DNA of 41,688 nt. It comes from a virus. The position numbers and the translations under genes are program-made. The notes under the pieces were generated by a model. The model did not search any database, had not been told where the DNA came from, and was given only the letters and a program-made list of their open reading frames with translations. Location of the stretch: the UHGV virus genome UHGV-0112358, one strand, 5' to 3'. Shown here piece after piece: positions 5,923 to 36,020 of this stretch (position 1 is its first letter; the number at the start of each line of letters is the position of its first letter).

Positions 5923-6201
5923 TCATTCTTCCCCCAGAGCCTTGCTGATGGCTGCCTTGGCTCGTTTGTATTCGGTTAACTCTCTGCACCCTTCGTCATG
6001 CTCGTAAATGAAGACAAGCTCTTGCAGTGCTTCAAGCAAATCAGGAGCTGCTGCTATCAGTAGCGCATCCTCCCTTTCATTTCTTGTTGCTGCTTCAATG
6101 TATGTGTCACCAATCGTCACACCATGGAACGTAGTCATCATCTCGTTGACGTTTCTAACCGTGTACTTCCATTTACCAGGCGTACCCTTAAACTCTTTCA
6201 T
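5923..6201 (-). CDS. hypothetical protein (92 aa)
   Basis: ATG at 6201 preceded by GAGGTGG; track ORF starts at GTG 6207. Confidence 0.45.
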   Translation of the reverse strand: MKEFKGTPGKWKYTVRNVNEMMTTFHGVTIGDTYIEAATRNEREDALLIAAAPDLLEALQELVFIYEHDEGCRELTEYKRAKAAISKALGEE

Positions 6202-6221
6202 ATCCACCTCTGTTGTTTATG

Positions 6222-6245
6222 CCAAAAATAAAGGCCGACTATGCG
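6222..6245 (-). terminator. rho-independent terminator (tL1-like)
   Basis: Minus strand AGGCCG-catagt-CGGCCT followed by TTTATTTTT. Confidence 0.45.
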
Positions 6246-6253
6246 GCCTGAAA

Positions 6254-6565
6254 TTACTTAACCAATGATGCCGCATATTCAATTAGGAATAACTTAGGTG
6301 CAAGCCAAATCTTCAACCATTCGAAATTGAAGGCAATAATTAAAACACCCATAATTGAGCCAAATATAGGAACAAATACAGTGCATATATCGTAATAAAC
6401 CGAAGATATAAAATGTTCATCATTTGGACGTCCATCGAAAGACGTCCATCTCTCGCCATTATTTCTTGCCGTTCTTGCAAAACTAGGAAGTTTAATTGCT
6501 GCAATTAAAAGCAACAATCCAGCCACTTGGAAAAGTGCGCTATGGACAAAACTCCATATTAGCAA
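6254..6565 (-). CDS. putative small membrane protein, no ATG/GTG start (TTG at 6565)
   Basis: Open frame 6254..6679 directly after N; hydrophobic segments; only in-frame start is TTG without clear SD. Confidence 0.3.
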   Translation of the reverse strand: MLIWSFVHSALFQVAGLLLLIAAIKLPSFARTARNNGERWTSFDGRPNDEHFISSVYYDICTVFVPIFGSIMGVLIIAFNFEWLKIWLAPKLFLIEYAASLVK

Positions 6566-6684
6566 CTGATGAACAACATCAGGAATCTGTGCCTGGCTAA
6601 ATGAAACAGCCGCGTCTATTCCATTGCTGGCTTTTTGCAGTAGTTCTACGAGAATCTTGTTTGCTTGTTCTTCTACATCTCACC

Positions 6685-7020
6685 TCAAATAAGTGGTTTG
6701 CTGCCTAATTTCATTTTTTGGCGACCAACACAAGTCACCCCCATTTCACTGCGTGGCTTGCGGTAGTAAATACGGTTCTGTTTACGCTCGACTTCTTCTG
6801 CCTTCTTGCAGCGAAGGCTTCCGAGTGATGCTGCTTTTTCAGAAAGGCTTAAACGCTTTCTTGGGGCTTCCTGAACAGGTTCCTCACTGTCTGTGCCGAA
6901 GATCGAATCGATGATGTTGCATATAGCATCACGCTCGATAGCCAGCTTTCTGCGCCGCTCATGACGGCGAGTTTTGGCATTTCCTGCAAATGTTGATTTC
7001 CCGTACACGATTACCGTCAT
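6685..7020 (-). CDS. N: N-like transcription antiterminator
   Basis: Arg-rich motif GNAKTRRHERRRKLAIERD (P22 gp24-like) and C-terminus ...GVTCVGRQKMKLGSKPLI (lambda N-like); ATG 7020 with SD GAGGA. Confidence 0.8.
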   Translation of the reverse strand: MTVIVYGKSTFAGNAKTRRHERRRKLAIERDAICNIIDSIFGTDSEEPVQEAPRKRLSLSEKAASLGSLRCKKAEEVERKQNRIYYRKPRSEMGVTCVGRQKMKLGSKPLI

Positions 7021-7139
7021 GATGTTTTCCTCATGTGAAATGGCTTTGGTGGTGATGCGCCAGATGCTGATCTTCTGGTTGCTGTCGTTGCAGCTGCAAT
7101 TCACATCACCGCCAAACCCATCTCGTTTGGTATCTGTTT

Positions 7140-7173
7140 GCGCTTTGTCAGCGCCCCATCGAAGTTAAAGAGC
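7140..7173 (-). promoter_or_regulatory. nutL (boxA GCTCTTTAA, boxB GCGCTGACAAAGCGC)
   Basis: Minus-strand boxA-like then P22-type boxB hairpin between pL and N. Confidence 0.55.
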
Positions 7174-7212
7174 CTGCCAATCTGTTCCGTTTGGCGTCCT
7201 GCTGATGGCTAA

Positions 7213-7243
7213 ATAGTACGATGTGTACTTTATTGAGTCAATA
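7213..7243 (-). promoter_or_regulatory. pL promoter with OL operator dyad
   Basis: Minus strand -35 TTGACT (7241..7236), 17-nt spacer, -10 TACTAT (7218..7213); dyad AGTACGATGTGTACT (7215-7229) in spacer. Confidence 0.4.
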
Positions 7244-7304
7244 CAAAATGTTCTAAATGCGGTTAGTTTTTTATAACACTTTGTATTTTATTGATTTATA
7301 TTTT

Positions 7305-7334
7305 GGAAAAAGAAAACCCGACGCTAAGGTCGGG
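7305..7334 (-). terminator. rho-independent terminator downstream of cI
   Basis: Minus strand CCCGAC-cttagc-GTCGGG followed by TTTTCTTTTT. Confidence 0.5.
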
Positions 7335-7366
7335 TTATTGTTGTGTGTTTTAGAGTGGTGAGGCTG

Positions 7367-8026
7367 TTAACTAAATGTCTCTTCAGGCCACTGGCTGGCG
7401 ATAACTTTCCCTACTACGGAACAGCTATCATTGCATGGGATCATTGGATATTGCGGGTTTAGTGGTTGTAGGAACACCTGACCGCTATCCCTGATCAGTT
7501 TCTTGAAGGTAAACTCGTCACCACCAAGTCTGGCTATGCAGAAATCACCTGGCTCAACAGCCTGCTCAGGGTCAACGAGAATTAACATCCCGTCAGGAAA
7601 GCTTGGCTTGGATCCTGTTGGTGCGGTCATGGAATTACCTTCAACTTCAAGCCAAAACGCACAATCACTGGCTTTTTTGGTTGTGCTGACCCATCTCTCC
7701 GCATCGCCTTTGGTAAAGGTTCTAAGCTCAGGCGAGAACATCCCGGCCTGAACATGAGAAAAAACAGGGTACTCATATTGTTTTTTAACGGGGGCAGATG
7801 AGTATTCGCCAACAGGTGAAAATGTACCGTCGTGGTTGAATGAGACGTTATCAATACCAAGGTATTTAAACACCACACCAATCTCGTCAAGAGATGGATG
7901 ACGAGATCCGCGCAACCAGTGACCAATTCCACCCTGCGTCATACCAAGCTCTTCAGCTAACTTCTCTTGAGTTATGCCGAGCTCTTTCATTCTGGATCTA
8001 GCCAGTTCATACCATTTCATTTTCAT
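7367..8026 (-). CDS. cI: CI-type prophage repressor (HTH N-terminus, lambda-like S24 C-terminal domain)
   Basis: C-terminal half near-identical to recalled lambda CI ([15 protein letters not shown]...GNSM...ASQWPEETF); N-terminal HTH differs; start MKMKW at 8026, track ORF extends to 8101. Confidence 0.9.
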
Positions 8027-8137
8027 ACCCTTATTATTACGCTCTGTACTAAAACCATCCATGCACAAGATGTATTTTTTGTTTGCATTCCAAAAGTACA
8101 TATCGTATTATTGTTTCATGGTTACTATGGAGGGCAT
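8027..8137. promoter_or_regulatory. OR region: pR promoter and candidate operators
   Basis: pR -35 TTGCAT (8083-8088), 17-nt spacer, -10 TATTAT (8106-8111); operator-like dyads ATTACGCTCTGTACT (8036-8050) and AGTACATATCGTATT (8095-8109). Confidence 0.45.
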
Positions 8138-8353
8138 ATGAGCAACCTACGAAAATATCGAGAGTCACTGAATATCTCTCAAACAACACTTGCTAAGGCG
8201 GTTGGATGCACACAGGGAGCTATCGGACATTGGGAATCTGGTCGTCGCTTCCCAGACCTTAAAACATGCCGTGCTCTTGTTGCGTGCCTAAACAAGTTAG
8301 GCGCAAAAGTCAGTCTTGATGACGTGTTCCCACCGGAACACAAAGCCGCTTAA
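8138..8353 (+). CDS. cro: Cro-like HTH repressor
   Basis: 71-aa HTH protein (ISQTTLAKAVGCTQGAIGHWESG) divergent from cI; SD GGAGGG; track ORF starts upstream at 7967. Confidence 0.75.
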   Translation: MSNLRKYRESLNISQTTLAKAVGCTQGAIGHWESGRRFPDLKTCRALVACLNKLGAKVSLDDVFPPEHKAA

Positions 8354-8363
8354 TAAGCGGATC

Positions 8364-8398
8364 CGCTCTTTATCAATCTGCACCGCCGACAACGCGGT
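8364..8398 (+). promoter_or_regulatory. nutR (boxA CGCTCTTTA, boxB ACCGCCGACAACGCGGT)
   Basis: boxA consensus 10 nt after cro stop, then hairpin with GACAA-type loop. Confidence 0.55.
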
Positions 8399-8462
8399 AA
8401 CTAATTAATCACTCATCGAAAGATGAGTATTAGTGATTATTTACCTATGGAAATAGTAAGAA

Positions 8463-8759
8463 ATGGAACAAACAAGTTACAGCAAACTATCACAGCGCGA
8501 CGTTGATCGCGCTGAAACAGATTTACTCATCAACCTGTCAACGCTTACACAGCGCGGTCTGGCAAAGATGATTGGCTGTCATGAATCGAAGATAAGCAGA
8601 ACGGACTGGAGATTTATTGCTTCGGTCTTGTGTGCTTTCGGAATGGCATCAGACATCAGTCCGATTAGCAGGGCTTTTAAGTATGCGCTTGATGGAATCA
8701 CAAAGAAAAAATCCCCGGTGGCCGCCGGGGACTCTAAGCAAATTGATATGCAATTCTGA
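8463..8759 (+). CDS. cII: CII-like transcriptional activator
   Basis: HTH core and C-terminus ...KKKSPVAAGDSKQIDMQF resembling recalled lambda CII (...RSEQIQMEF). Confidence 0.7.
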   Translation: MEQTSYSKLSQRDVDRAETDLLINLSTLTQRGLAKMIGCHESKISRTDWRFIASVLCAFGMASDISPISRAFKYALDGITKKKSPVAAGDSKQIDMQF

Positions 8760-8791
8760 GGGAATTACTGGATCAATCCACAGGAGTCATT

Positions 8792-9637
8792 ATGACAAAT
8801 ACAGCAAAAATACTCAACTTCGGCAGAGGTAACTTTGCCGAACAGGAGCTAAGAGTGGCTGATATCGATGATGGTTACACCAGATTCGCTAACGAGCTGC
8901 TGGAAGCTATCGCAAGTGCCGATTTAACCGCTCGCCAGTTGAAAGTTATGCTGGCCTACGTCCGGAAAACATATGGATTCAATAAGAAAACAGATCGAAT
9001 AGCCGATGAGCAAATTGCTCAGTTAACAGGACTGTCAAGGCAGAATGTTAACAAGGCTAAAAAAGAACTGATTTCAATGAATTGCCTGTTTATGGATGGA
9101 AATAAAATCGGTGTAAACAGGGAGGTATCTGCGTGGCAATTCAGCAAGTGTCTCCAAGTTAGCAACTTTGTCTCGAAGTTAGAGACAAAAAATGTCTCCA
9201 AATTAGAGACACTCAATGTCTCGAAGTTAGAGACACACAAAAGACATTCTTTAAAGACAAAAGAAAATATTAATAAACCCCCTATATCCCCCAAAAAAAT
9301 TTCTCAGAAGTTCGACCCGCTAGAAACAGAGTTGCCTGATTGGTTATCGGCAGAAACATGGTTGTCGTGGGTTACCTATCGCAAGGAGATAGGTAAGTCG
9401 ATCAAGTCTAAGCAAAGCGTCACTCAGGCTATCAACGTTCTAAGCAGAAGTCTGGAGAAGGGATATACACCTGAAGAAATTATAAACCAGAGCATCGCCA
9501 GTGGTTGGCAGGGGATTTTTGAACCCAAGACTCCAAAGGGGAAATCTCAACCGAGGCCGCAGCAGCGAGCTATGCAGGAAAACTTTGCCGCCAAAGATTA
9601 CGGGCAAACTGAAATGCCTTCATGGGCGCAGGAGTGA
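8792..9637 (+). CDS. O: replication initiator O (lambda-O-like N-terminal domain)
   Basis: MTNTAKILNFGRGNFA... matches recalled lambda O N-terminus; iterons inside the gene; C-terminal domain differs. Confidence 0.85.
   Translation: MTNTAKILNFGRGNFAEQELRVADIDDGYTRFANELLEAIASADLTARQLKVMLAYVRKTYGFNKKTDRIADEQIAQLTGLSRQNVNKAKKELISMNCLFMDGNKIGVNREVSAWQFSKCLQVSNFVSKLETKNVSKLETLNVSKLETHKRHSLKTKENINKPPISPKKISQKFDPLETELPDWLSAETWLSWVTYRKEIGKSIKSKQSVTQAINVLSRSLEKGYTPEEIINQSIASGWQGIFEPKTPKGKSQPRPQQRAMQENFAAKDYGQTEMPSWAQE
9149..9235 (+). repeat. origin iterons (ori) inside O
   Basis: TGTCTCGAAGTTAGAGACA at 9169, 9193, 9217 (24-bp period) plus degenerate copy at 9149; each palindromic TGTCTC/GAGACA; followed by A/T-rich stretch 9236-9300. 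Confidence 0.8.
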
Positions 9638-16156: not shown

Positions 16157-16616
16157 TCAACGTAAGGCGTTCCTCGATATGCTGGCGTGGTCAGAGGGAA
16201 CTGATAACGGACGACAGAAAACCAGAAATCATGGTTATGACGTCATTGTAGGTGGAGAGCTATTCACTGATTACTCCGATCACCCTCGTAAACTTGTCAC
16301 GCTAAACCCAAAACTCAAATCAACAGCAGCCGGTCGCTATCAGCTTCTTTCCCGTTGGTGGGATTCCTATCGTAAGCAGCTTGGCCTGAAAGACTTCTCT
16401 CCGAAAAGCCAAGACGCTGTGGCATTGCAGCAGATTAAAGAGCGTGGCGCTTTACCGATGATTGATCGCGGTGATATCCGTCAGGCTATCGATCGTTGCA
16501 GCAATATCTGGGCTTCACTGCCGGGCGCTGGTTATGGTCAGTTCGAGCATAAGGCTGACAACCTGATTGCAAAATTCAAAGAAGCTGGCGGAACGGTCAG
16601 AGAGATTGAGGTATGA
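16140..16616 (+). CDS. R: endolysin R (lytic transglycosylase)
   Basis: [35 protein letters not shown]... near-identical to recalled lambda R. Confidence 0.9.
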
Positions 16617-18266: not shown

Positions 18267-18857
18267 ATGGCAAAGCTCACCGACAAACAAGAGCTGTTTG
18301 CCCGTGAGTACCTGAAAGATCTGAATGGAACACAGGCAGCTATCAGGGCGGGCTACAGCGAGAAGACCGCCAATGAGCAGGCATCTCGATTATTAGCAAA
18401 TGTTAATGTTCAAAAATTCGTTGCTGAACTTAAAACCGCCCGCGTTGAACAGACGGGCATAGATGCAGCCTATGTTCTTCGTAGATTGGTTGAAATCGAC
18501 CAGATGGATGTGCTTGACATTCTCCTGCAAGACGGTGAGCTAAAACCCATTAAAGACTGGCCTAAGGTATGGCGCACAACGCTATCAGGAATGGATGTCG
18601 TGGAGATGGTATCCGCAGATAGCGCCGCACTTCTGAAGAAAATCAAATGGCCTGATAAGGTCAAAAACCTCGAACTTCTTGGTAAGCATGTTTCTGTTCA
18701 GGCATTTAAAGAGCAAACATCTACAGAAATAACTGGCGCTGATGGTGGCCCTGTTCGTTATGCCGATATGTCAGAAGAGTTACTTGAAGAGAAACTGAAG
18801 GAGCTTGGTAATGGCAGGCGCTCCAATCAGCTTGAATCGAAACGCTCAGATTTATGA
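18267..18857 (+). CDS. terminase small subunit
   Basis: MAKLTDKQELFAREYLKDLNGTQAAIRAGYSEKTA... typical small-terminase N-terminus; immediately upstream of TerL. Confidence 0.75.
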   Translation: MAKLTDKQELFAREYLKDLNGTQAAIRAGYSEKTANEQASRLLANVNVQKFVAELKTARVEQTGIDAAYVLRRLVEIDQMDVLDILLQDGELKPIKDWPKVWRTTLSGMDVVEMVSADSAALLKKIKWPDKVKNLELLGKHVSVQAFKEQTSTEITGADGGPVRYADMSEELLEEKLKELGNGRRSNQLESKRSDL

Positions 18858-32386: not shown

Positions 32387-32502
32387 TCTTTCCCCTTGTA
32401 ACGTTTCCTATGTTTGTATCCGTTAACTTAAGCAAAAGCACGCAACACTCGGTTTTACGCAGGATACCAGATGATACTGTGTAGTTGGAGTAGTGCGGTT
32501 GC

Positions 32503-32594
32503 AATGCAAGCATTTTGCTTTTGTTTTATGCTTGCTTGTATGTGGGTACAGTGCATATAATGCAAGCATATATCACAGCAAAGGTGCTTGCATT
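32503..32594. promoter_or_regulatory. operator array (4 copies of AATGCAAGCAT) over a consensus promoter
   Basis: Copies at 32503-32514, 32528-32535, 32559-32570, 32585-32594 in alternating orientation; -35 TTGCTT (32532-32537), -10 TATAAT (32556-32561). Confidence 0.5.
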
Positions 32595-33587
32595 ATGACT
32601 GAAAAGAAAAGTGGTGAAGGGAAAGCTAAGGGCGGAATCGCTCGCGCAAAGTCGCTGACTAAAGAGCAGCGTTCTGAAATAGCAAAGAAAGCAGCGGCTG
32701 CAAGATGGAAGGATAAACCATTAATTGCTACGCATAAGGGATCGTTCCAGCATGAATTCGGGATTGATGTTGAGTGCTATGTGTTAAATGATGATAACAA
32801 AACTGCCGTTATTAGCCAGAGAGGCATGGGAGAAGCGATTGGTCTTGGCGAAGGTGGCAGCAGGTTGCCAAAGTTTATTCAGGGGAAAACTATTTCTCAG
32901 TATATCGGGCATGAATTAAGGGCAAAACTTGAAAATCCTCTTATTTTTCAATACAAACAGGTGGGCACGAACACACCAGCTAACCCTGTAATACATGGCT
33001 ACGATGTAACAATCTTAATTGATTTATGTCGAGCAATCTCTAACGCTAAAGCTGAAGGTAAGTTGCTTTCTAGTCAGGAAGGGATTGCTAAGCAAGCCAG
33101 GATAATTATTGATGCATCAGCCAAGGCGGGAATTCAGGGGCTTGTTTATGCTTTGGCAGGGTATGACAGAACAAAAGAAGAAGTAATTCAAGCATATAAG
33201 CGATATGTTGCTGAAGAGGCTCGTGAGTATGAAAGAGAGTTCACCCCTGAACTTTATGAGCATTGGTATCGTCTGTATGGTATAGACAAACCAGTTAGAG
33301 GGCGACCGTGGGCGTTTAAATATCTTACGATAGATCACATTTACTACCCATTAGCCAGAAGTGAAGGAAAGGTATTTAATTTAGCAAAAACGTCAAAAGA
33401 AGAGAAAGGCAGCAAAAACGATAAAATACACCAGTTTTTATCAGAGGTTGGAGTTAAAGCTCTTAGAACCCAAATAGGTAAGGTTACTGGTATTGCAATG
33501 GTTTCTGATACTCGAGAAGAGTATGAGAAATACATAGATGAAAAGGTTATTGGACAAAGAACCATCGACTTAAAAGATAAAGAATAA
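32595..33587 (+). CDS. KGG-motif / P63C-like protein of unknown function
   Basis: ATG 32595 after SD; N-terminus GKAKGGIARAKSLTKEQRSEIAKKAAAARW; track ORF starts upstream at 32493. Confidence 0.55.
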   Translation: MTEKKSGEGKAKGGIARAKSLTKEQRSEIAKKAAAARWKDKPLIATHKGSFQHEFGIDVECYVLNDDNKTAVISQRGMGEAIGLGEGGSRLPKFIQGKTISQYIGHELRAKLENPLIFQYKQVGTNTPANPVIHGYDVTILIDLCRAISNAKAEGKLLSSQEGIAKQARIIIDASAKAGIQGLVYALAGYDRTKEEVIQAYKRYVAEEAREYEREFTPELYEHWYRLYGIDKPVRGRPWAFKYLTIDHIYYPLARSEGKVFNLAKTSKEEKGSKNDKIHQFLSEVGVKALRTQIGKVTGIAMVSDTREEYEKYIDEKVIGQRTIDLKDKE

Positions 33588-33616
33588 GAAAAACCCACCG
33601 TCAGGTGGGTTTTTTG
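33588..33616. terminator. bidirectional terminator between convergent genes
   Basis: A-run, ACCCACC-gtca-GGTGGGT, T-run. Confidence 0.6.
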
Positions 33617-33921
33617 TTTAGCAGTTCTCTTAACTTTTCGTTTTGCTCTCTGAACTTTTCCTGTATTTCTTTTTGCATGGCGATAACCTGGGCTTGAAGT
33701 TGAACTAGCGCATCAACATTTAGCGGAACCGAGACGCTGTTGATTTTGTCTGCTATTTCCCCAAGAGTATTTTCTGCATTCAAGGCATCTTCCAGTATCT
33801 GCACAATCTCTGAGTTCATTGATCTGCCGTTACGTTTAGCTCGTTCAGCTATAGCATCTCGCATTCCGTCAGGAAAACGGAGGTTGAACTTGTCGTAGTC
33901 TTTTACTTGTTTTTCGGCCAT
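33601..33921 (-). CDS. mnt: Mnt/Arc-type ribbon-helix-helix repressor
   Basis: KFNLRFPDGMRDAIAERAKRNGRSMNSEIVQ RHH motif; divergent from arc-ant pair; track ORF extends to 33960. Confidence 0.6.
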   Translation of the reverse strand: MAEKQVKDYDKFNLRFPDGMRDAIAERAKRNGRSMNSEIVQILEDALNAENTLGEIADKINSVSVPLNVDALVQLQAQVIAMQKEIQEKFREQNEKLRELLNKKPT

Positions 33922-33939
33922 TGCAAATCTCTCAAAAAA

Positions 33940-34012
33940 ACCATGGTGCCATATTGCCATACGATTTCAATGGTGGCATTATGGCCTTCATGGCGTCACT
34001 TTGGCACCAAAT
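33940..34012. promoter_or_regulatory. divergent promoter/operator region of immI-like switch
   Basis: Inverted half-sites GGTGCCA / TGGCACC repeated between the mnt-like and arc-like starts. Confidence 0.4.
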
Positions 34013-34027
34013 AAAGGAGATTAGATA

Positions 34028-34201
34028 ATGCAAGATACACTTTTCACTGAGCGCAAAAATATCAAACTCAACCTTCGCCTTCCATCACGGCTGAATGAAG
34101 ACCTTCGCCGCCTGGCGGAAATGGACTGTATATCTCTGAACTCTGCAATTGTTCGTTTGCTGGCAAAAGGTGTTAGGGAAGAGGTGGCGAATGGTCGCTA
34201 A
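34028..34201 (+). CDS. arc: Arc-like ribbon-helix-helix repressor (57 aa)
   Basis: [36 protein letters not shown] motif; SD AAAGGAG; below track cutoff. Confidence 0.6.
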
Positions 34202-35207
34202 AAACAGCGAAGCCCCAATGGCTGCAACCATTGAGGCTTCTAAATTACCAGTTAACTACGAGAAAACTGATATGAATAGTATAGCAATTTTAGAAGCAGT
34301 GAACACCTCTTACGTACCCTTCAACGGTCAGCAAATTATCACCGCCATGGCTGCAGGAGTTGCATATGTTGCGATGAAGCCAATCGTTGAAAACCTCGGA
34401 ATGAGCTGGGGTACTCAGCAACAAAAACTTATGAAACAACTAGATAAGTTCAACTGTATTCATATGAATATGGTTGCTGCTGATGGGAAGCTTCGTAAGC
34501 TACTCTGCCTTCCTTTGAAGAAGTTAAATGGATGGCTGTTCAGCATCAACCCTGAGAAAGTTCGTGCTGACATCCGCGATAAACTGATTCAGTACCAGGA
34601 AGAATGCTTTACTGTGCTGCATGACTACTGGACTAAAGGCCATGTGGTTAACCCGCGCAAAGCTAAAAAGGCGTTGCCGGGCAAAATCACCACTGAACAG
34701 CAGGAAGCCATTAAACAACTTGTCATGAGTCGCGGTCAGTCTCTGCCAAAAGAAAAACAGGCGAAGGCGATGATCACCATGTGGTCGTCACTGAAATCCC
34801 ATTTTGGATGTTCGTACAAAGAAATCAGTGAGGAGCAGTTTACCGAAGCACTGTCACTTGCAGCTCGAGTTCCACTTGAAGGTGAGTTCATTAGCAAACA
34901 AGAGAAGAGCACCAACGAGCTTTCCGCAAAAGAAGCAAACAGCCTTGTATGGTTATGGGATTATGCCAACCGCTCACAGGCATTATTCCGCGAACTGTAT
35001 CCGGCATTAAAACAAATTCAATCGAACTATTCCGGCAGATGCTACGACTACGGTCATGAGTTCTCGTATGTTATCGGAACGGCGAGAGACGTTTTAATCA
35101 ACCACACACGAGATGTTGATATCAATGAGCCAGACGGACCAACAAATCTTTCTGCATGGATAAGGCTTAAGAATAAAGAATTACCGCCTTCTGTTCATCT
35201 GTATTAA
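34191..35207 (+). CDS. ant: antirepressor (Ant-like, AntA N-terminal domain)
   Basis: [23 protein letters not shown]... resembles recalled P22 Ant; ATG 34191 with SD GAGGTGG overlapping arc end. Confidence 0.65.
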
Positions 35208-35291
35208 TGACGCATCTGGTGGTGAAAAAAAACCGCCAGTGTGCAGCTGGCGGCCTATGTCACACCCTTACTACCACATAAGGAATGCCTA

Positions 35292-36020
35292 ATGACTTTT
35301 AAGAATGTAGCAAACATCGGATCCGTTGTCACGGATAAAACCATTGATAGCCAGTACCTGTTAGAGATGGTCAATCATGCTCGTAGACAGTGCGGGGAAA
35401 AAGAAGTCCGCAATAACGACTTTATTGCACGCATTAAGGATGAACTTGAAGGTGAGCACTACGAAATTTTCGTAGTTCAAAAATCAAACAAGACAACTTC
35501 TGAAAAAGTTGTTATGTCAATTAAGCAAGCCCTTCGAGTGGCTGCTCGTGAATCTAAAGCTGTTCGCCGCTCACTTGTAGACCAACTTGAAAGTATGCAA
35601 GAAGCGCACATTAAAAGCGGTAAATCGTCTAGTGGACTTGTTGAGTATCGCCAGGCGCGAACATTGAAAATGACGGTTGAAGCTGTTACCAATCTGTTCG
35701 ATTTGATGCCAAATCTTGCGCCGGAAGCAAAGCAGACTGCGGCAGCAAGCATAATCAACCCGATCGTTGGTTTTAATGCAATACCTCTTCCAGCAATAGA
35801 AGAGCATTACTACTCAGCAGGGGAGGTTGCAGAGCAGCTTGGAGTAACGGCCAACAAGATTGGTCGCATTGCTAACGCAAACAACCTCAAAACTGAGCAG
35901 TACGGGAAGTTCTTCCTGGATAAATCTGCGCATTCCAGCAAACAGGTGGAAGCATTCCGCTACAATGCGGAAGGTGTTAAAGCACTACAACACCTGGTTC
36001 ATGGGAGTAATGTTGCATAA
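35292..36020 (+). CDS. hypothetical DNA-binding protein (possible antirepressor-like)
   Basis: ATG 35292 with SD AAGGA; HTH-like segment near C-terminus; track ORF starts 35241. Confidence 0.45.
   Translation: MTFKNVANIGSVVTDKTIDSQYLLEMVNHARRQCGEKEVRNNDFIARIKDELEGEHYEIFVVQKSNKTTSEKVVMSIKQALRVAARESKAVRRSLVDQLESMQEAHIKSGKSSSGLVEYRQARTLKMTVEAVTNLFDLMPNLAPEAKQTAAASIINPIVGFNAIPLPAIEEHYYSAGEVAEQLGVTANKIGRIANANNLKTEQYGKFFLDKSAHSSKQVEAFRYNAEGVKALQHLVHGSNVA

Follow-up and report, generated by a model that had tools for sequence, protein, structure and literature searches.

A patchwork lambdoid early control region of a kind already carried by E. coli prophages and Shiga-toxin phages

The closest described relatives of the locus analysed here are of several kinds. 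The Stx1 and Stx2-II phages of O157:H7 Morioka V526 (AP005153, AP005154), Nil2 (AJ413274), 1717 and 2851 have the same order cI-OR-cro-cII, and the Stx1 Morioka record, which annotates putative operators, names its CI "similar to phage lambda CI". This Morioka/Nil2-type CI is most likely the clade I CI of Stx phages, which is about 61% identical to lambda CI overall (PMC8951638). Dewey and Louie (Lederbergvirus, PMC12243541), vB_EcoP-683R2 and phi458 share the immunity cassette of our locus. For the N antiterminator, intragenic mosaics that keep their function have been published: over 75 aa, the gp24 of phage L is 96% identical to that of P22, the C-termini are unrelated, and either protein can stand in for the other (PMC8022706).

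Distribution of the region in prophages and phages

We analysed a stretch of 41,688 nucleotides, the UHGV virus genome UHGV-0112358 (hereafter, the window), in which positions 6685-8410 are, with high confidence, the normal early control region (immC and an N/nut system) of a lambda-family E. coli prophage. A first-pass annotation had described this interval as a chimeric immunity region; its coordinates were accurate, and when each described element was checked, all were present (Table 1). Judging from sequence comparison, the region is pieced together from modules also known in lambda, P22, phage 21 and HK022, with junctions in the CI linker and within N, so the domain-level mosaic that had been proposed is real. 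It is also ordinary, since many E. coli prophages and Shiga-toxin phages that have been sequenced already carry it: this is lambdoid mosaicism of the textbook kind, known before, and not a new chimera.

The first-pass annotation had implied that no single known phage would match the whole region without domain junctions. For prophages this does not hold, as the full 1,726 bp aligned in one piece and without junctions, at 98.2-98.9% identity, in at least seven complete E. coli genomes, and at ≥80% coverage in 50 E. coli genomes. The prophages with the identical contiguous arrangement lie in independent complete genomes that differ in host and country. In the search of phage records, no named phage spanned all of 6685-8410, the maximum coverage being 72%. 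This ceiling, together with the clear junctions with lambda, P22 and 21, is what would be expected if a recent and unique recombination in the UHGV-0112358 genome had made a new immunity specificity. We consider such an event very improbable, given the one-piece prophage alignments as well as the CI of phage Dewey, which has 100% amino acid identity to that of the window, the CI HTH domain, found at ≥95% identity in 63 phage records, and the hybrid N and nutL, which are 95% identical in Stx2a phages. Moreover, the CI C-terminal domain has diverged from lambda by 6% at the nucleotide level, mostly at synonymous positions, which points to an old exchange. The immunity type is present, and partly annotated, in the Morioka V526 Stx1 and Stx2-II phages, Nil2, 1717, 2851, phi458, Dewey and Louie. 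Since the region and its immunity type already occur in other genomes and phages, the junctions are old and shared rather than an event of the UHGV-0112358 genome.

A chimeric contig assembled from the reads of several prophages could also produce a mosaic, and one E. coli genome often holds several lambdoid prophages with shared segments (a wider query, 6200-8800, had a median of two matching places per genome with any match). This is next to inconceivable here, because the mosaic is found uninterrupted in independent complete genomes, no reading frame is broken, and the junctions coincide with biologically sensible module borders. Our literature searches returned no paper on the exact N/CI combination, and similar CI (Stx-phage clade I) and N mosaics have been described. 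No Rfam family matched within 6000-9200 at permissive E-values.

Table 1. Features of the early control region and its border, in window coordinates
Feature	Position	Strand	Basis
Phage-21-type N 3' segment (aa 60-111 and 20 nt past the stop)	6665-6840	-	94.9% nt over 176 nt to lambda imm21 and CUS-3
N antiterminator gene, 111 aa	6685-7020	-	ORF; Pfam N_peptide PF25694, E=1e-25
P22-family N 5' segment (arginine-rich motif), leader and nutL	6793-7209	-	93.9% to phage Lambda_2G7a
nutL boxB hairpin GCGCTGACAAAGCGC (= GCGCUGACAAAGCGC)	7140-7154	-	exact match to P22 30816-30830, within annotated nutL
nutL boxA-like GCTCTTTAA	7165-7173	-	aligned with P22 nutL CGCTCTTTAA
Conserved linker CGTCCTGCTGATGG at PL transcript start; junction of N/nutL module and immunity cassette	7195-7208	-	exact 14-mer
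PL promoter-like site (-35 TTGACT, -10 TACTAT)	7213-7241	-	consensus scan; overlaps OL1 and OL2; function inferred
Predicted 17-bp operator OL1	7214-7230		positional homologue of AP005153 putative operator
Predicted 17-bp operator OL2	7239-7255		positional homologue of AP005153 putative operator
Predicted 17-bp operator OL3	7272-7288		positional homologue of AP005153 putative operator
Intrinsic terminator directly 3' of cI, lambda t_imm homologue by sequence	7305-7336	-	terminator scan, fold
cI repressor gene, 219 aa from MKMKWYE	7367-8026	-	Pfam HTH_3 and Peptidase_S24; PDB 3BDN
Lambda-type cI part: linker, cleavage site, C-terminal domain	7373-7777	-	94.1% nt to lambda cI over 405 nt
Predicted operator OR3	8035-8051		homology to AP005153-annotated operator
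Predicted operator OR2	8061-8077		homology to AP005153-annotated operator
PR promoter-like site (-35 TTTGCA, -10 TATTAT)	8082-8111	+	consensus scan; overlaps OR1; function inferred
Predicted operator OR1	8094-8110		homology to AP005153-annotated operator
cro, 71 aa, HTH_3 type	8138-8353	+	Pfam HTH_3, E=4e-12
nutR boxA CGCTCTTTA	8364-8372	+	8364-8400 94.6% to P22 nutR
nutR boxB ACCGCCGACAACGCGGT (= ACCGCCGACAACGCGGU)	8382-8398	+	exact match to P22 31954-31970, its annotated nutR
cII, HK022-type, just outside 6685-8410	8463-8759	+	Pfam Phage_CII, E=2e-31

The immunity cassette

CI has the architecture of a LexA/CI-type phage repressor, with an HTH_3 domain (aa 16-63 of the query, E=8e-11) followed by Peptidase_S24 (E=9e-29, full-length profile), and its best PDB match is the lambda repressor (3BDN, E=2e-96). 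Residues 84-219 are identical to lambda CI at 133 of 136 positions, in line with the near-identity that the first-pass annotation had given for this half of the protein. The codon differences in the C-terminal domain comprise 22 synonymous and 3 non-synonymous changes, suggesting purifying selection. Ala94-Gly95, Ser132 and Lys175 align with Ala111-Gly112, Ser149 and Lys192 of lambda CI, that is, with the cleavage site and the catalytic dyad. In the N-terminal domain, 20 of 71 aligned positions are identical to lambda CI. The HTH domain thus differs from lambda's, as the first-pass annotation had said, but its word "unrelated" was too strong: the domain is a divergent homologue, both N-terminal domains being Pfam HTH_3 and residues 8-40 being 60.6% identical to the lambda-like phage HK630 (tblastn, E=2e-5). 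A PGAP-style cI start lies 36 nt further upstream, within the operators; this automatic start codon falls inside the predicted OR3 and OR2, and the true start is probably 12 codons downstream of it. The cI mRNA is possibly leaderless, as in lambda.

We assign operator binding, promoter use and the functional specificities in the region by homology, as predictions. The six predicted operators are positional homologues of those in the Morioka/Nil2 type, with 0-2 mismatches each. Their consensus half-site, tA-g/a-TAC, does not resemble lambda's, and the left half-site of OR2 (ATGCAC) departs from the consensus. OL1/OR1 was found as an inverted repeat, 90% complementary. The pattern ANWACN5GTWNT has seven matches in the whole window, five of them in OL or OR, where alone they cluster; this count is partly circular, as the pattern was derived from these sites. 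The operators are spaced by about 25-26 and 33 bp (OR2 to OR1, start to start, is 33 bp here and 32 bp in the Morioka/Nil2 type). In lambda, the operator spacing is 23-24 bp; because the spacings differ, lambda-like pairwise cooperativity is only an assumption here. The region has as many promoter-like sites as shuffled sequence would give (5 against an expected 5.0), so that PL and PR are called from position and homology only. Cro has a recognition helix, TQGAIGHW, nearly equal to the TQGGIGHW of CI.

The Morioka/Nil2 type is 89.8% identical to the window in DNA over 7367-8799, has cII in common with it, and its CI is 97% identical (212/219 with Stx1 Morioka), lambda-type C-terminal domain included. 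It differs from the window in having extra ORFs between cI and PL, the rex position of lambda, as well as an HK97-like N and other nut sites. Over 7194-8353, Dewey is 98.2% identical to the window. The CI DNA-binding domain, Cro and the operators are of the same type as in Nil2, Stx1 Morioka and Dewey, and on these grounds the prophage would belong to their immunity group. From its lambda-type CI C-terminal domain (133/136) and its best PDB match, one might instead place the phage in the lambda immunity group, homoimmune with lambda. This is exceedingly improbable, because operator specificity resides in the N-terminal domain, where the identity to lambda is 20/71. Furthermore, the predicted operators are unlike lambda's, Cro has no significant similarity to lambda Cro, and lambda-immunity phages such as HK544 appear only through a lambda-type N at 41%. 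Thus, the lambda N-terminal domain, operators and Cro that mark the lambda group are not found here, and DNA similarity to lambda is confined to the C-terminal part of cI, the terminator and cII-O. What the region shares with lambda is the CI linker, cleavage site and C-terminal domain, a t_imm-type terminator and three operators each at OL and OR, whereas the DNA-binding domain, the operators, Cro and the N and nut specificity differ and rexA and rexB are missing. The distinct immunity specificity proposed in the first-pass annotation stands insofar as the repressor/operator set is unlike those of lambda, P22, 21 and HK022; it is not distinctive, because the type had been sequenced before. 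HK022 matches only in cII (8436-8799, 94.8% nt), and its comparison with CI, Cro and N gave no tblastn match at E≤0.01.

No rexAB genes follow cI and a terminator comes directly after it, as had been noticed. Its hairpin (7315-7336, minus strand) begins 31 nt past the cI stop codon and consists of an 8-bp stem and a 6-nt loop, followed by UUUUCUUUUU; it folds at -12.4 kcal/mol (z = -4.2). A GC-rich hairpin with a U tract downstream of cI is what characterizes a Rho-independent terminator. To this the comparison adds a correction: positions 7309-7344 align at 88.9% identity with lambda 35799-35834, where rexB ends and the terminator behind it lies, indicating that the element is the homologue of lambda t_imm, which in lambda sits after rexB. 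Compared with t_imm, the stem is changed on both sides (GAC/GTC vs GGC/GCC). The Dewey group has the same terminator directly after cI. The longer E. coli matches differ at the 3' end of N and in the downstream genes, not by genes in the rex position, and their spacing from cI to the start of N looks close to the window's in annotation tables.

The N antiterminator and the nut sites

Downstream of PL and nutL, N comes first, as a lambdoid N antiterminator does, and it matches phrog_271 N-like (E=2e-46) and lambda N in PDB 6GOV (E=2e-6). Its N-terminal arm is of P22 type, as had been suggested: aa 1-42 are identical to P22 gp24 at 40 positions, the first 75 aa at 52 with the divergence in the middle, and the arginine-rich motif (GNAKTRRHERRRKLAIER) is unchanged. 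For the C-terminus, the lambda-N-like assignment is right as to the lambda/21 type, but the last 52 aa are specifically of phage-21 type (48/52), while the last 35 aa are identical to lambda N at 20 positions, counted by hand. At the DNA level, the 3' end of N has no blastn match to lambda N at E≤1e-3, the similarity being at the protein level only. Sequence similarity therefore points to phage 21 as the true donor type of the C-terminal half, with kinship to lambda N only through it. The hybrid N is found, about 94% identical in amino acids, in 87 phage records. In the gene that follows N, the ATG start codon has been lost.

Both nut sites have a boxA, a spacer and a boxB, one site between PL and N and the other between cro and cII; the boxA-like 9-mers lie upstream of the boxB hairpins by 10 nt on the left and 9 nt on the right. 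Both boxB elements are identical to P22 base for base, bearing out the P22-type nutL and the nutR boxB noted before, and the nutL boxB folds into a 5-bp stem with a GACAA loop (-7.1 kcal/mol). P22, and also phage L, has a boxA near-identical to the window's. On the other hand, P22 DNA is only 73% identical (72.6% over 6895-7213), the C-terminus of N is unrelated to the GVALYAAGHRKSKQITAR tail of P22, and c2, cro and the operators differ. The N proteins of phage 21 (lambda imm21) and CUS-3 differ from that of the window by an arginine-rich motif and nut sites of the 21 type. Wherever the locus of a comparator with a P22-type motif extends to the site, the boxB is of P22 type. This co-variation of N type and boxB type is observed here directly, as are the identities, junction positions, motifs and domain content. 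With the same arginine-rich motif and both boxB hairpins identical, the N/boxB specificity would be that of P22.

The missing ATG downstream of N, and the occurrence of similar modules in many resident prophages, could suggest what remains of a cryptic prophage in decay, with regulatory elements that no longer function. We find this unlikely, because cI, cro, N and cII are full-length, the conserved nut sites, operators and terminator are intact, and the divergence of the CI C-terminal domain is biased towards synonymous changes. The window also encodes complete sets of replication, lysis and virion proteins, and Dewey, Louie and phi458, isolated plaque-forming phages, use the same cassette.

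Two proposed nested sets and their exchange

We return to the reading of a normal early control region and propose that it consists of two nested, independently exchangeable sets. The inner one, an immunity cassette at about 7195-8353, would comprise OL1-3 with PL, the t_imm-like terminator, cI, OR1-3 with PR and PRM, and cro; the outer one would comprise N, nutL and nutR. Dewey argues that the cI-cro cassette moves as one functional set and that N, nutL and nutR move together as a second, because in this phage the same cassette is flanked by an N of lambda type, ending in a 21-type tail, and by lambda-type boxB elements at both nutL and nutR. Stx2a phages such as Stx2_EH1965 (LC616032) have the hybrid N and nutL (6684-7207, 94.8%) and nutR (8363-8487, 98.4%) in common with the window but a different immunity cassette, of about 2.7 kb, between nutL and nutR. 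At the left border, the similarity of Stx2_EH1965 stops at 7207 and that of Dewey begins at 7194; the 14-mer linker located there is present exactly in P22, 21, L, CUS-3, 2G7a, Dewey, Stx1 Morioka and an E. coli O25 prophage. The patchwork probably arose, before the UHGV-0112358 genome, by homologous recombination within short conserved stretches. These would be the start of the PL transcript, the linker of CI, the EKAASLGSLRCKK segment in N and the interval that separates cro from boxA.

In the inner set, the HTH domain of CI would recognise the six 17-bp operators and give the repressor the specificity of the Nil2/Stx1-Morioka/Dewey immunity group. Cro, with almost the same recognition helix, would bind the sites of CI. 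Through its C-terminal domain, with the Ala-Gly site and the Ser/Lys dyad, CI would dimerise, bind cooperatively and cleave itself under RecA stimulation, and because this domain is lambda-type, prophage maintenance and SOS induction should work as in lambda. In the outer set, N should load onto RNA polymerase at the nut sites with P22 specificity, as its arginine-rich motif and both boxB hairpins are those of P22, and its 21/lambda-type C-terminal half would contact the elongation complex. The C-terminal domain of CI, at 133/136, covers the dimer and cooperativity surfaces of lambda CI, so that CI might mix with a co-resident lambda-type CI of another DNA-binding domain, in dimers or in cooperative tetramers or octamers. 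We regard this as doubtful; if true, heteroimmune prophages sharing a cell would become linked in their stability or in the threshold at which they are induced.

In summary, the region carries little weight as a discovery and serves as a tidy illustration of how lambdoid phages evolve by modules, in which the immunity cassette was swapped independently of the split N/nutL/nutR set flanking it, with exchange points in the CI inter-domain linker and inside N. For annotation, its value is that the prophage can be provisionally assigned to the Nil2/Stx1-Morioka/Dewey immunity group with a P22 antitermination specificity.

Organization of the early control region

At 6685-8410 lies the early control region of a lambdoid E. 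coli prophage or phage, with its features collected in the table below.

Features of the early control region and the adjoining cII gene
Feature	Position	Strand	Domain or match
N (111 aa)	6685-7020	minus	Pfam N_peptide
nutL boxB	7140-7154	minus	identical to P22 annotated nutL
nutL boxA-like	7165-7173	minus	
PL-like promoter	7213-7241	minus	
Predicted operator OL1	7214-7230	both	
Predicted operator OL2	7239-7255	both	
Predicted operator OL3	7272-7288	both	
Intrinsic terminator	7305-7336	minus	
cI	7367-8026	minus	Pfam HTH_3 + Peptidase_S24
Predicted operator OR3	8035-8051	both	
Predicted operator OR2	8061-8077	both	
Predicted operator OR1	8094-8110	both	
PR-like promoter	8082-8111	plus	
cro (71 aa)	8138-8353	plus	Pfam HTH_3
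nutR boxA	8364-8372	plus	
nutR boxB	8382-8398	plus	identical to P22 annotated nutR
cII	8463-8759	plus	Pfam Phage_CII

Each predicted operator has a positional homologue among the putative operators annotated in AP005153, the Stx1-converting phage of E. coli O157:H7 Morioka V526. A degenerate operator pattern has seven matches in 41.7 kb, five of them in OL or OR, a count that is partly circular because the pattern was built from those operators. The recognition helices of CI (TQGGIGHW) and Cro (TQGAIGHW) are almost equal, as would be expected of proteins that compete for shared operators. The arrangement of OR3, a -10-like AATAAT (8033-8038, minus) and the ATG at 8026 suggests that the PRM transcript would be leaderless, like that of lambda; the longer automatic call of cI (231 aa) would begin within OR2.

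The first-pass annotation had noted a terminator directly after cI and no rexAB-like genes, and the terminator indeed begins 31 nt past the cI stop codon with no rex genes between. It shares 89% identity with the lambda terminator after rexB (t_imm) and shows compensating changes on both sides of the stem. Compared with lambda, the rexAB block is simply absent between cI and the common terminator.

Domain make-up, junctions and exchangeable sets

CI had been described as having a C-terminus almost identical to that of lambda and an unrelated HTH domain. The first part stands, as residues 84-219 are identical to lambda CI at 133 of 136 positions; the corresponding DNA is 94.1% identical over 405 nt (7373-7777), the differing codons are 22 synonymous and 3 non-synonymous, and this stretch includes both the Ala-Gly cleavage site and the Ser/Lys dyad. 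The identity starts at lambda mature residue Tyr101 (position 102 with Met1 counted), in the linker just past the DNA-binding domain and ten residues ahead of the cleavage site, and this is a genuine domain-boundary junction. The N-terminal domain is very different from that of lambda (20/71 aligned residues identical) but homologous to it, being of the same Pfam HTH type and matching the lambda-like phage HK630 at 60.6% over residues 8-40 (tblastn). Beyond its own group, its closest relatives are repressors of the Salmonella P22-like phages SPN9CC, epsilon34 and L, at ~54%.

The P22-like parts of the antitermination system were recognized correctly, since residues 1-42 of N equal P22 gp24 at 40 of 42 positions, with the arginine-rich motif unaltered, and both boxB hairpins are base-for-base those of P22. 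The C-terminus of N, first read as lambda-N-like, is specifically of phage 21 type: 6665-6840 shows 94.9% DNA identity to N of lambda imm21 and CUS-3, and 48 of 52 amino acids are identical to phage 21 N. The lambda likeness is real but weaker, with 20 of the last 35 amino acids identical (counted on aligned strings), E=2e-6 between the window N and lambda N in PDB 6GOV, and no DNA-level match of the back part to lambda N by blastn. The hybrid N recurs at ~94% amino acid identity in 87 phage records, most of them from Stx2a phages and unannotated. Intragenic N mosaicism with specificity kept has been published for phage L versus P22 (PMC8022706), and the converse case for epsilon34 (PMC2629481).

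Mosaic map of the region from blastn against fetched comparators
Position	Comparator	Nucleotide identity
6665-6840	phage 21, CUS-3	95%
6793-7209	Lambda_2G7a	94%
6895-7213	P22	73%
6684-7207	Stx2a phage Stx2_EH1965	95%
7194-8353	phage Dewey	98.2%
7367-8799	Stx1 phage of Morioka V526	89.8%
7373-7777	lambda	94%
8364-8400	P22	95%
8363-8487	Stx2_EH1965	98%
8436-8799	HK022	95%

Junctions fall at four places: inside N, at the PL transcript start, in the CI linker, and between the cro stop codon and nutR boxA. Inside N, the 48-nt overlap 6793-6840 encodes EKAASLGSLRCKK, common to both N types. The 14-mer CGTCCTGCTGATGG (7195-7208) at the PL transcript start has identical copies in P22, 21, L, CUS-3, 2G7a, Dewey, the Stx1 Morioka phage and an E. 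coli O25 prophage. It sits at the left edge of the exchangeable immunity cassette (OL to cro) and may be a linker for recombination or a boundary sequence.

Phage Dewey has the same cassette, with a 100% identical CI, but the arginine-rich motif of its N is lambda-type, and nutL and nutR each carry the lambda boxB. Conversely, Stx2_EH1965 shares N, nutL and nutR with the window but has a different cassette between them. Among the boxB sites inside the fetched loci, every comparator with the P22-type motif has a P22-type boxB. By these comparisons, N, nutL and nutR act as a single specificity set, inherited together although split by the cassette, which is itself swapped as a unit.

A perfect palindrome, CCGCTTAATAAGCGG (8346-8360), spans the cro stop codon, precisely where the cassette ends on the right and just ahead of nutR boxA; the terminator scan marked it as a minus-strand terminator-like hairpin.

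The remainder of the window

Early genes in the left part of the window resemble those of the P22-like coliphages N7, IME10, CUS-3 and Sf6. The gene directly downstream of N (6254-6679, minus) matches phrog_3054, of unknown function, across the full profile, and has lost its ATG start: relatives have GAGATATGGAAGAAC (ATG GAA GAA) versus GAGATGTAGAAGAAC in the window, where a GTA is in frame and an ATG-TAG is out of frame. Among canonical starts, the first in frame is a TTG at 6565; the gene may be a pseudogene, or its start may be unusual. A strong terminator-like hairpin (8708-8735, minus) lies antisense in the cII 3' end, at the position of the lambda/P22 oop terminator, and nearby, 8767-8799 matches the P22 oop promoter region at 94% identity. 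Remote from both nut sites are extra boxA-like strings (CGCTCTTTA / GCTCTTTAA at 16435-16444 and GCTCTTTAA at 18706-18714, minus strand), which could be due to chance.

The part from 18000 to 41688 has almost no DNA match, with at most 6% coverage by any of 50,697 phage records. It encodes a large terminase (Terminase_6N/6C), a portal (Phage_portal_3), DUF2213, a DUF3383 protein, in our reading possibly sheath-like, and a Baseplate_J protein, which suggests a contractile-tail type virion module joined to a lambdoid, P22-like early region.

Within the tail-gene cluster lies a P22 immI-like insert (33601-35207; surroundings 32493-36020). Its divergent pair of small ORFs (33601-33960, minus; 34028-34201, plus) look by eye like Arc/Mnt-like ribbon-helix-helix proteins. 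An Ant antirepressor gene comes next (34149-35207; P22_AR_N and P22_AR_C domains), ~94% identical to its Stx-phage counterparts, and nearby are a P63C-domain protein (32493-33587) and a further ORF (35241-36020). The insert may provide a second, antirepressor-based layer of control over immunity, which could thus be bipartite like that of P22.

Occurrence in phages and prophages

A whole-region match without domain junctions, which the first-pass annotation named as evidence against its reading, exists in prophages of bacterial genomes but in no single named phage record. At least seven complete E. coli genomes contain the full 1,726 bp as a single aligned stretch at 98.2-98.9% identity, and 50 E. 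coli genomes match at ≥80% coverage; one match is a prophage adjoining dsdC/torI in an O25:NM strain. A CI HTH domain with ≥95% identity to this one is encoded in 63 phage records, including Nil2, 1717, 2851-type Stx phages, phi458, PhiR11_1, Dewey and Louie. In the AP005153 record, operators are marked and the CI is labelled 'similar to phage lambda CI', and a survey of Stx-phage repressors gives clade I CI as ~61% identical overall to lambda CI (PMC8951638), the value that a protein with the domain make-up of the window CI would give.

The earlier observations thus all hold, with the HTH domain and the N C-terminus refined. Of the proposed distinct immunity specificity built by domain-level recombination, the mosaic and an immunity unlike those of lambda, P22, 21 and HK022 are borne out, but nothing is distinctive, as prophages carry the whole region and the group is known. 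The region is not new: it belongs to an immunity group that has been sequenced and partly annotated before, joined here to an N/nut set also known from earlier sequences.
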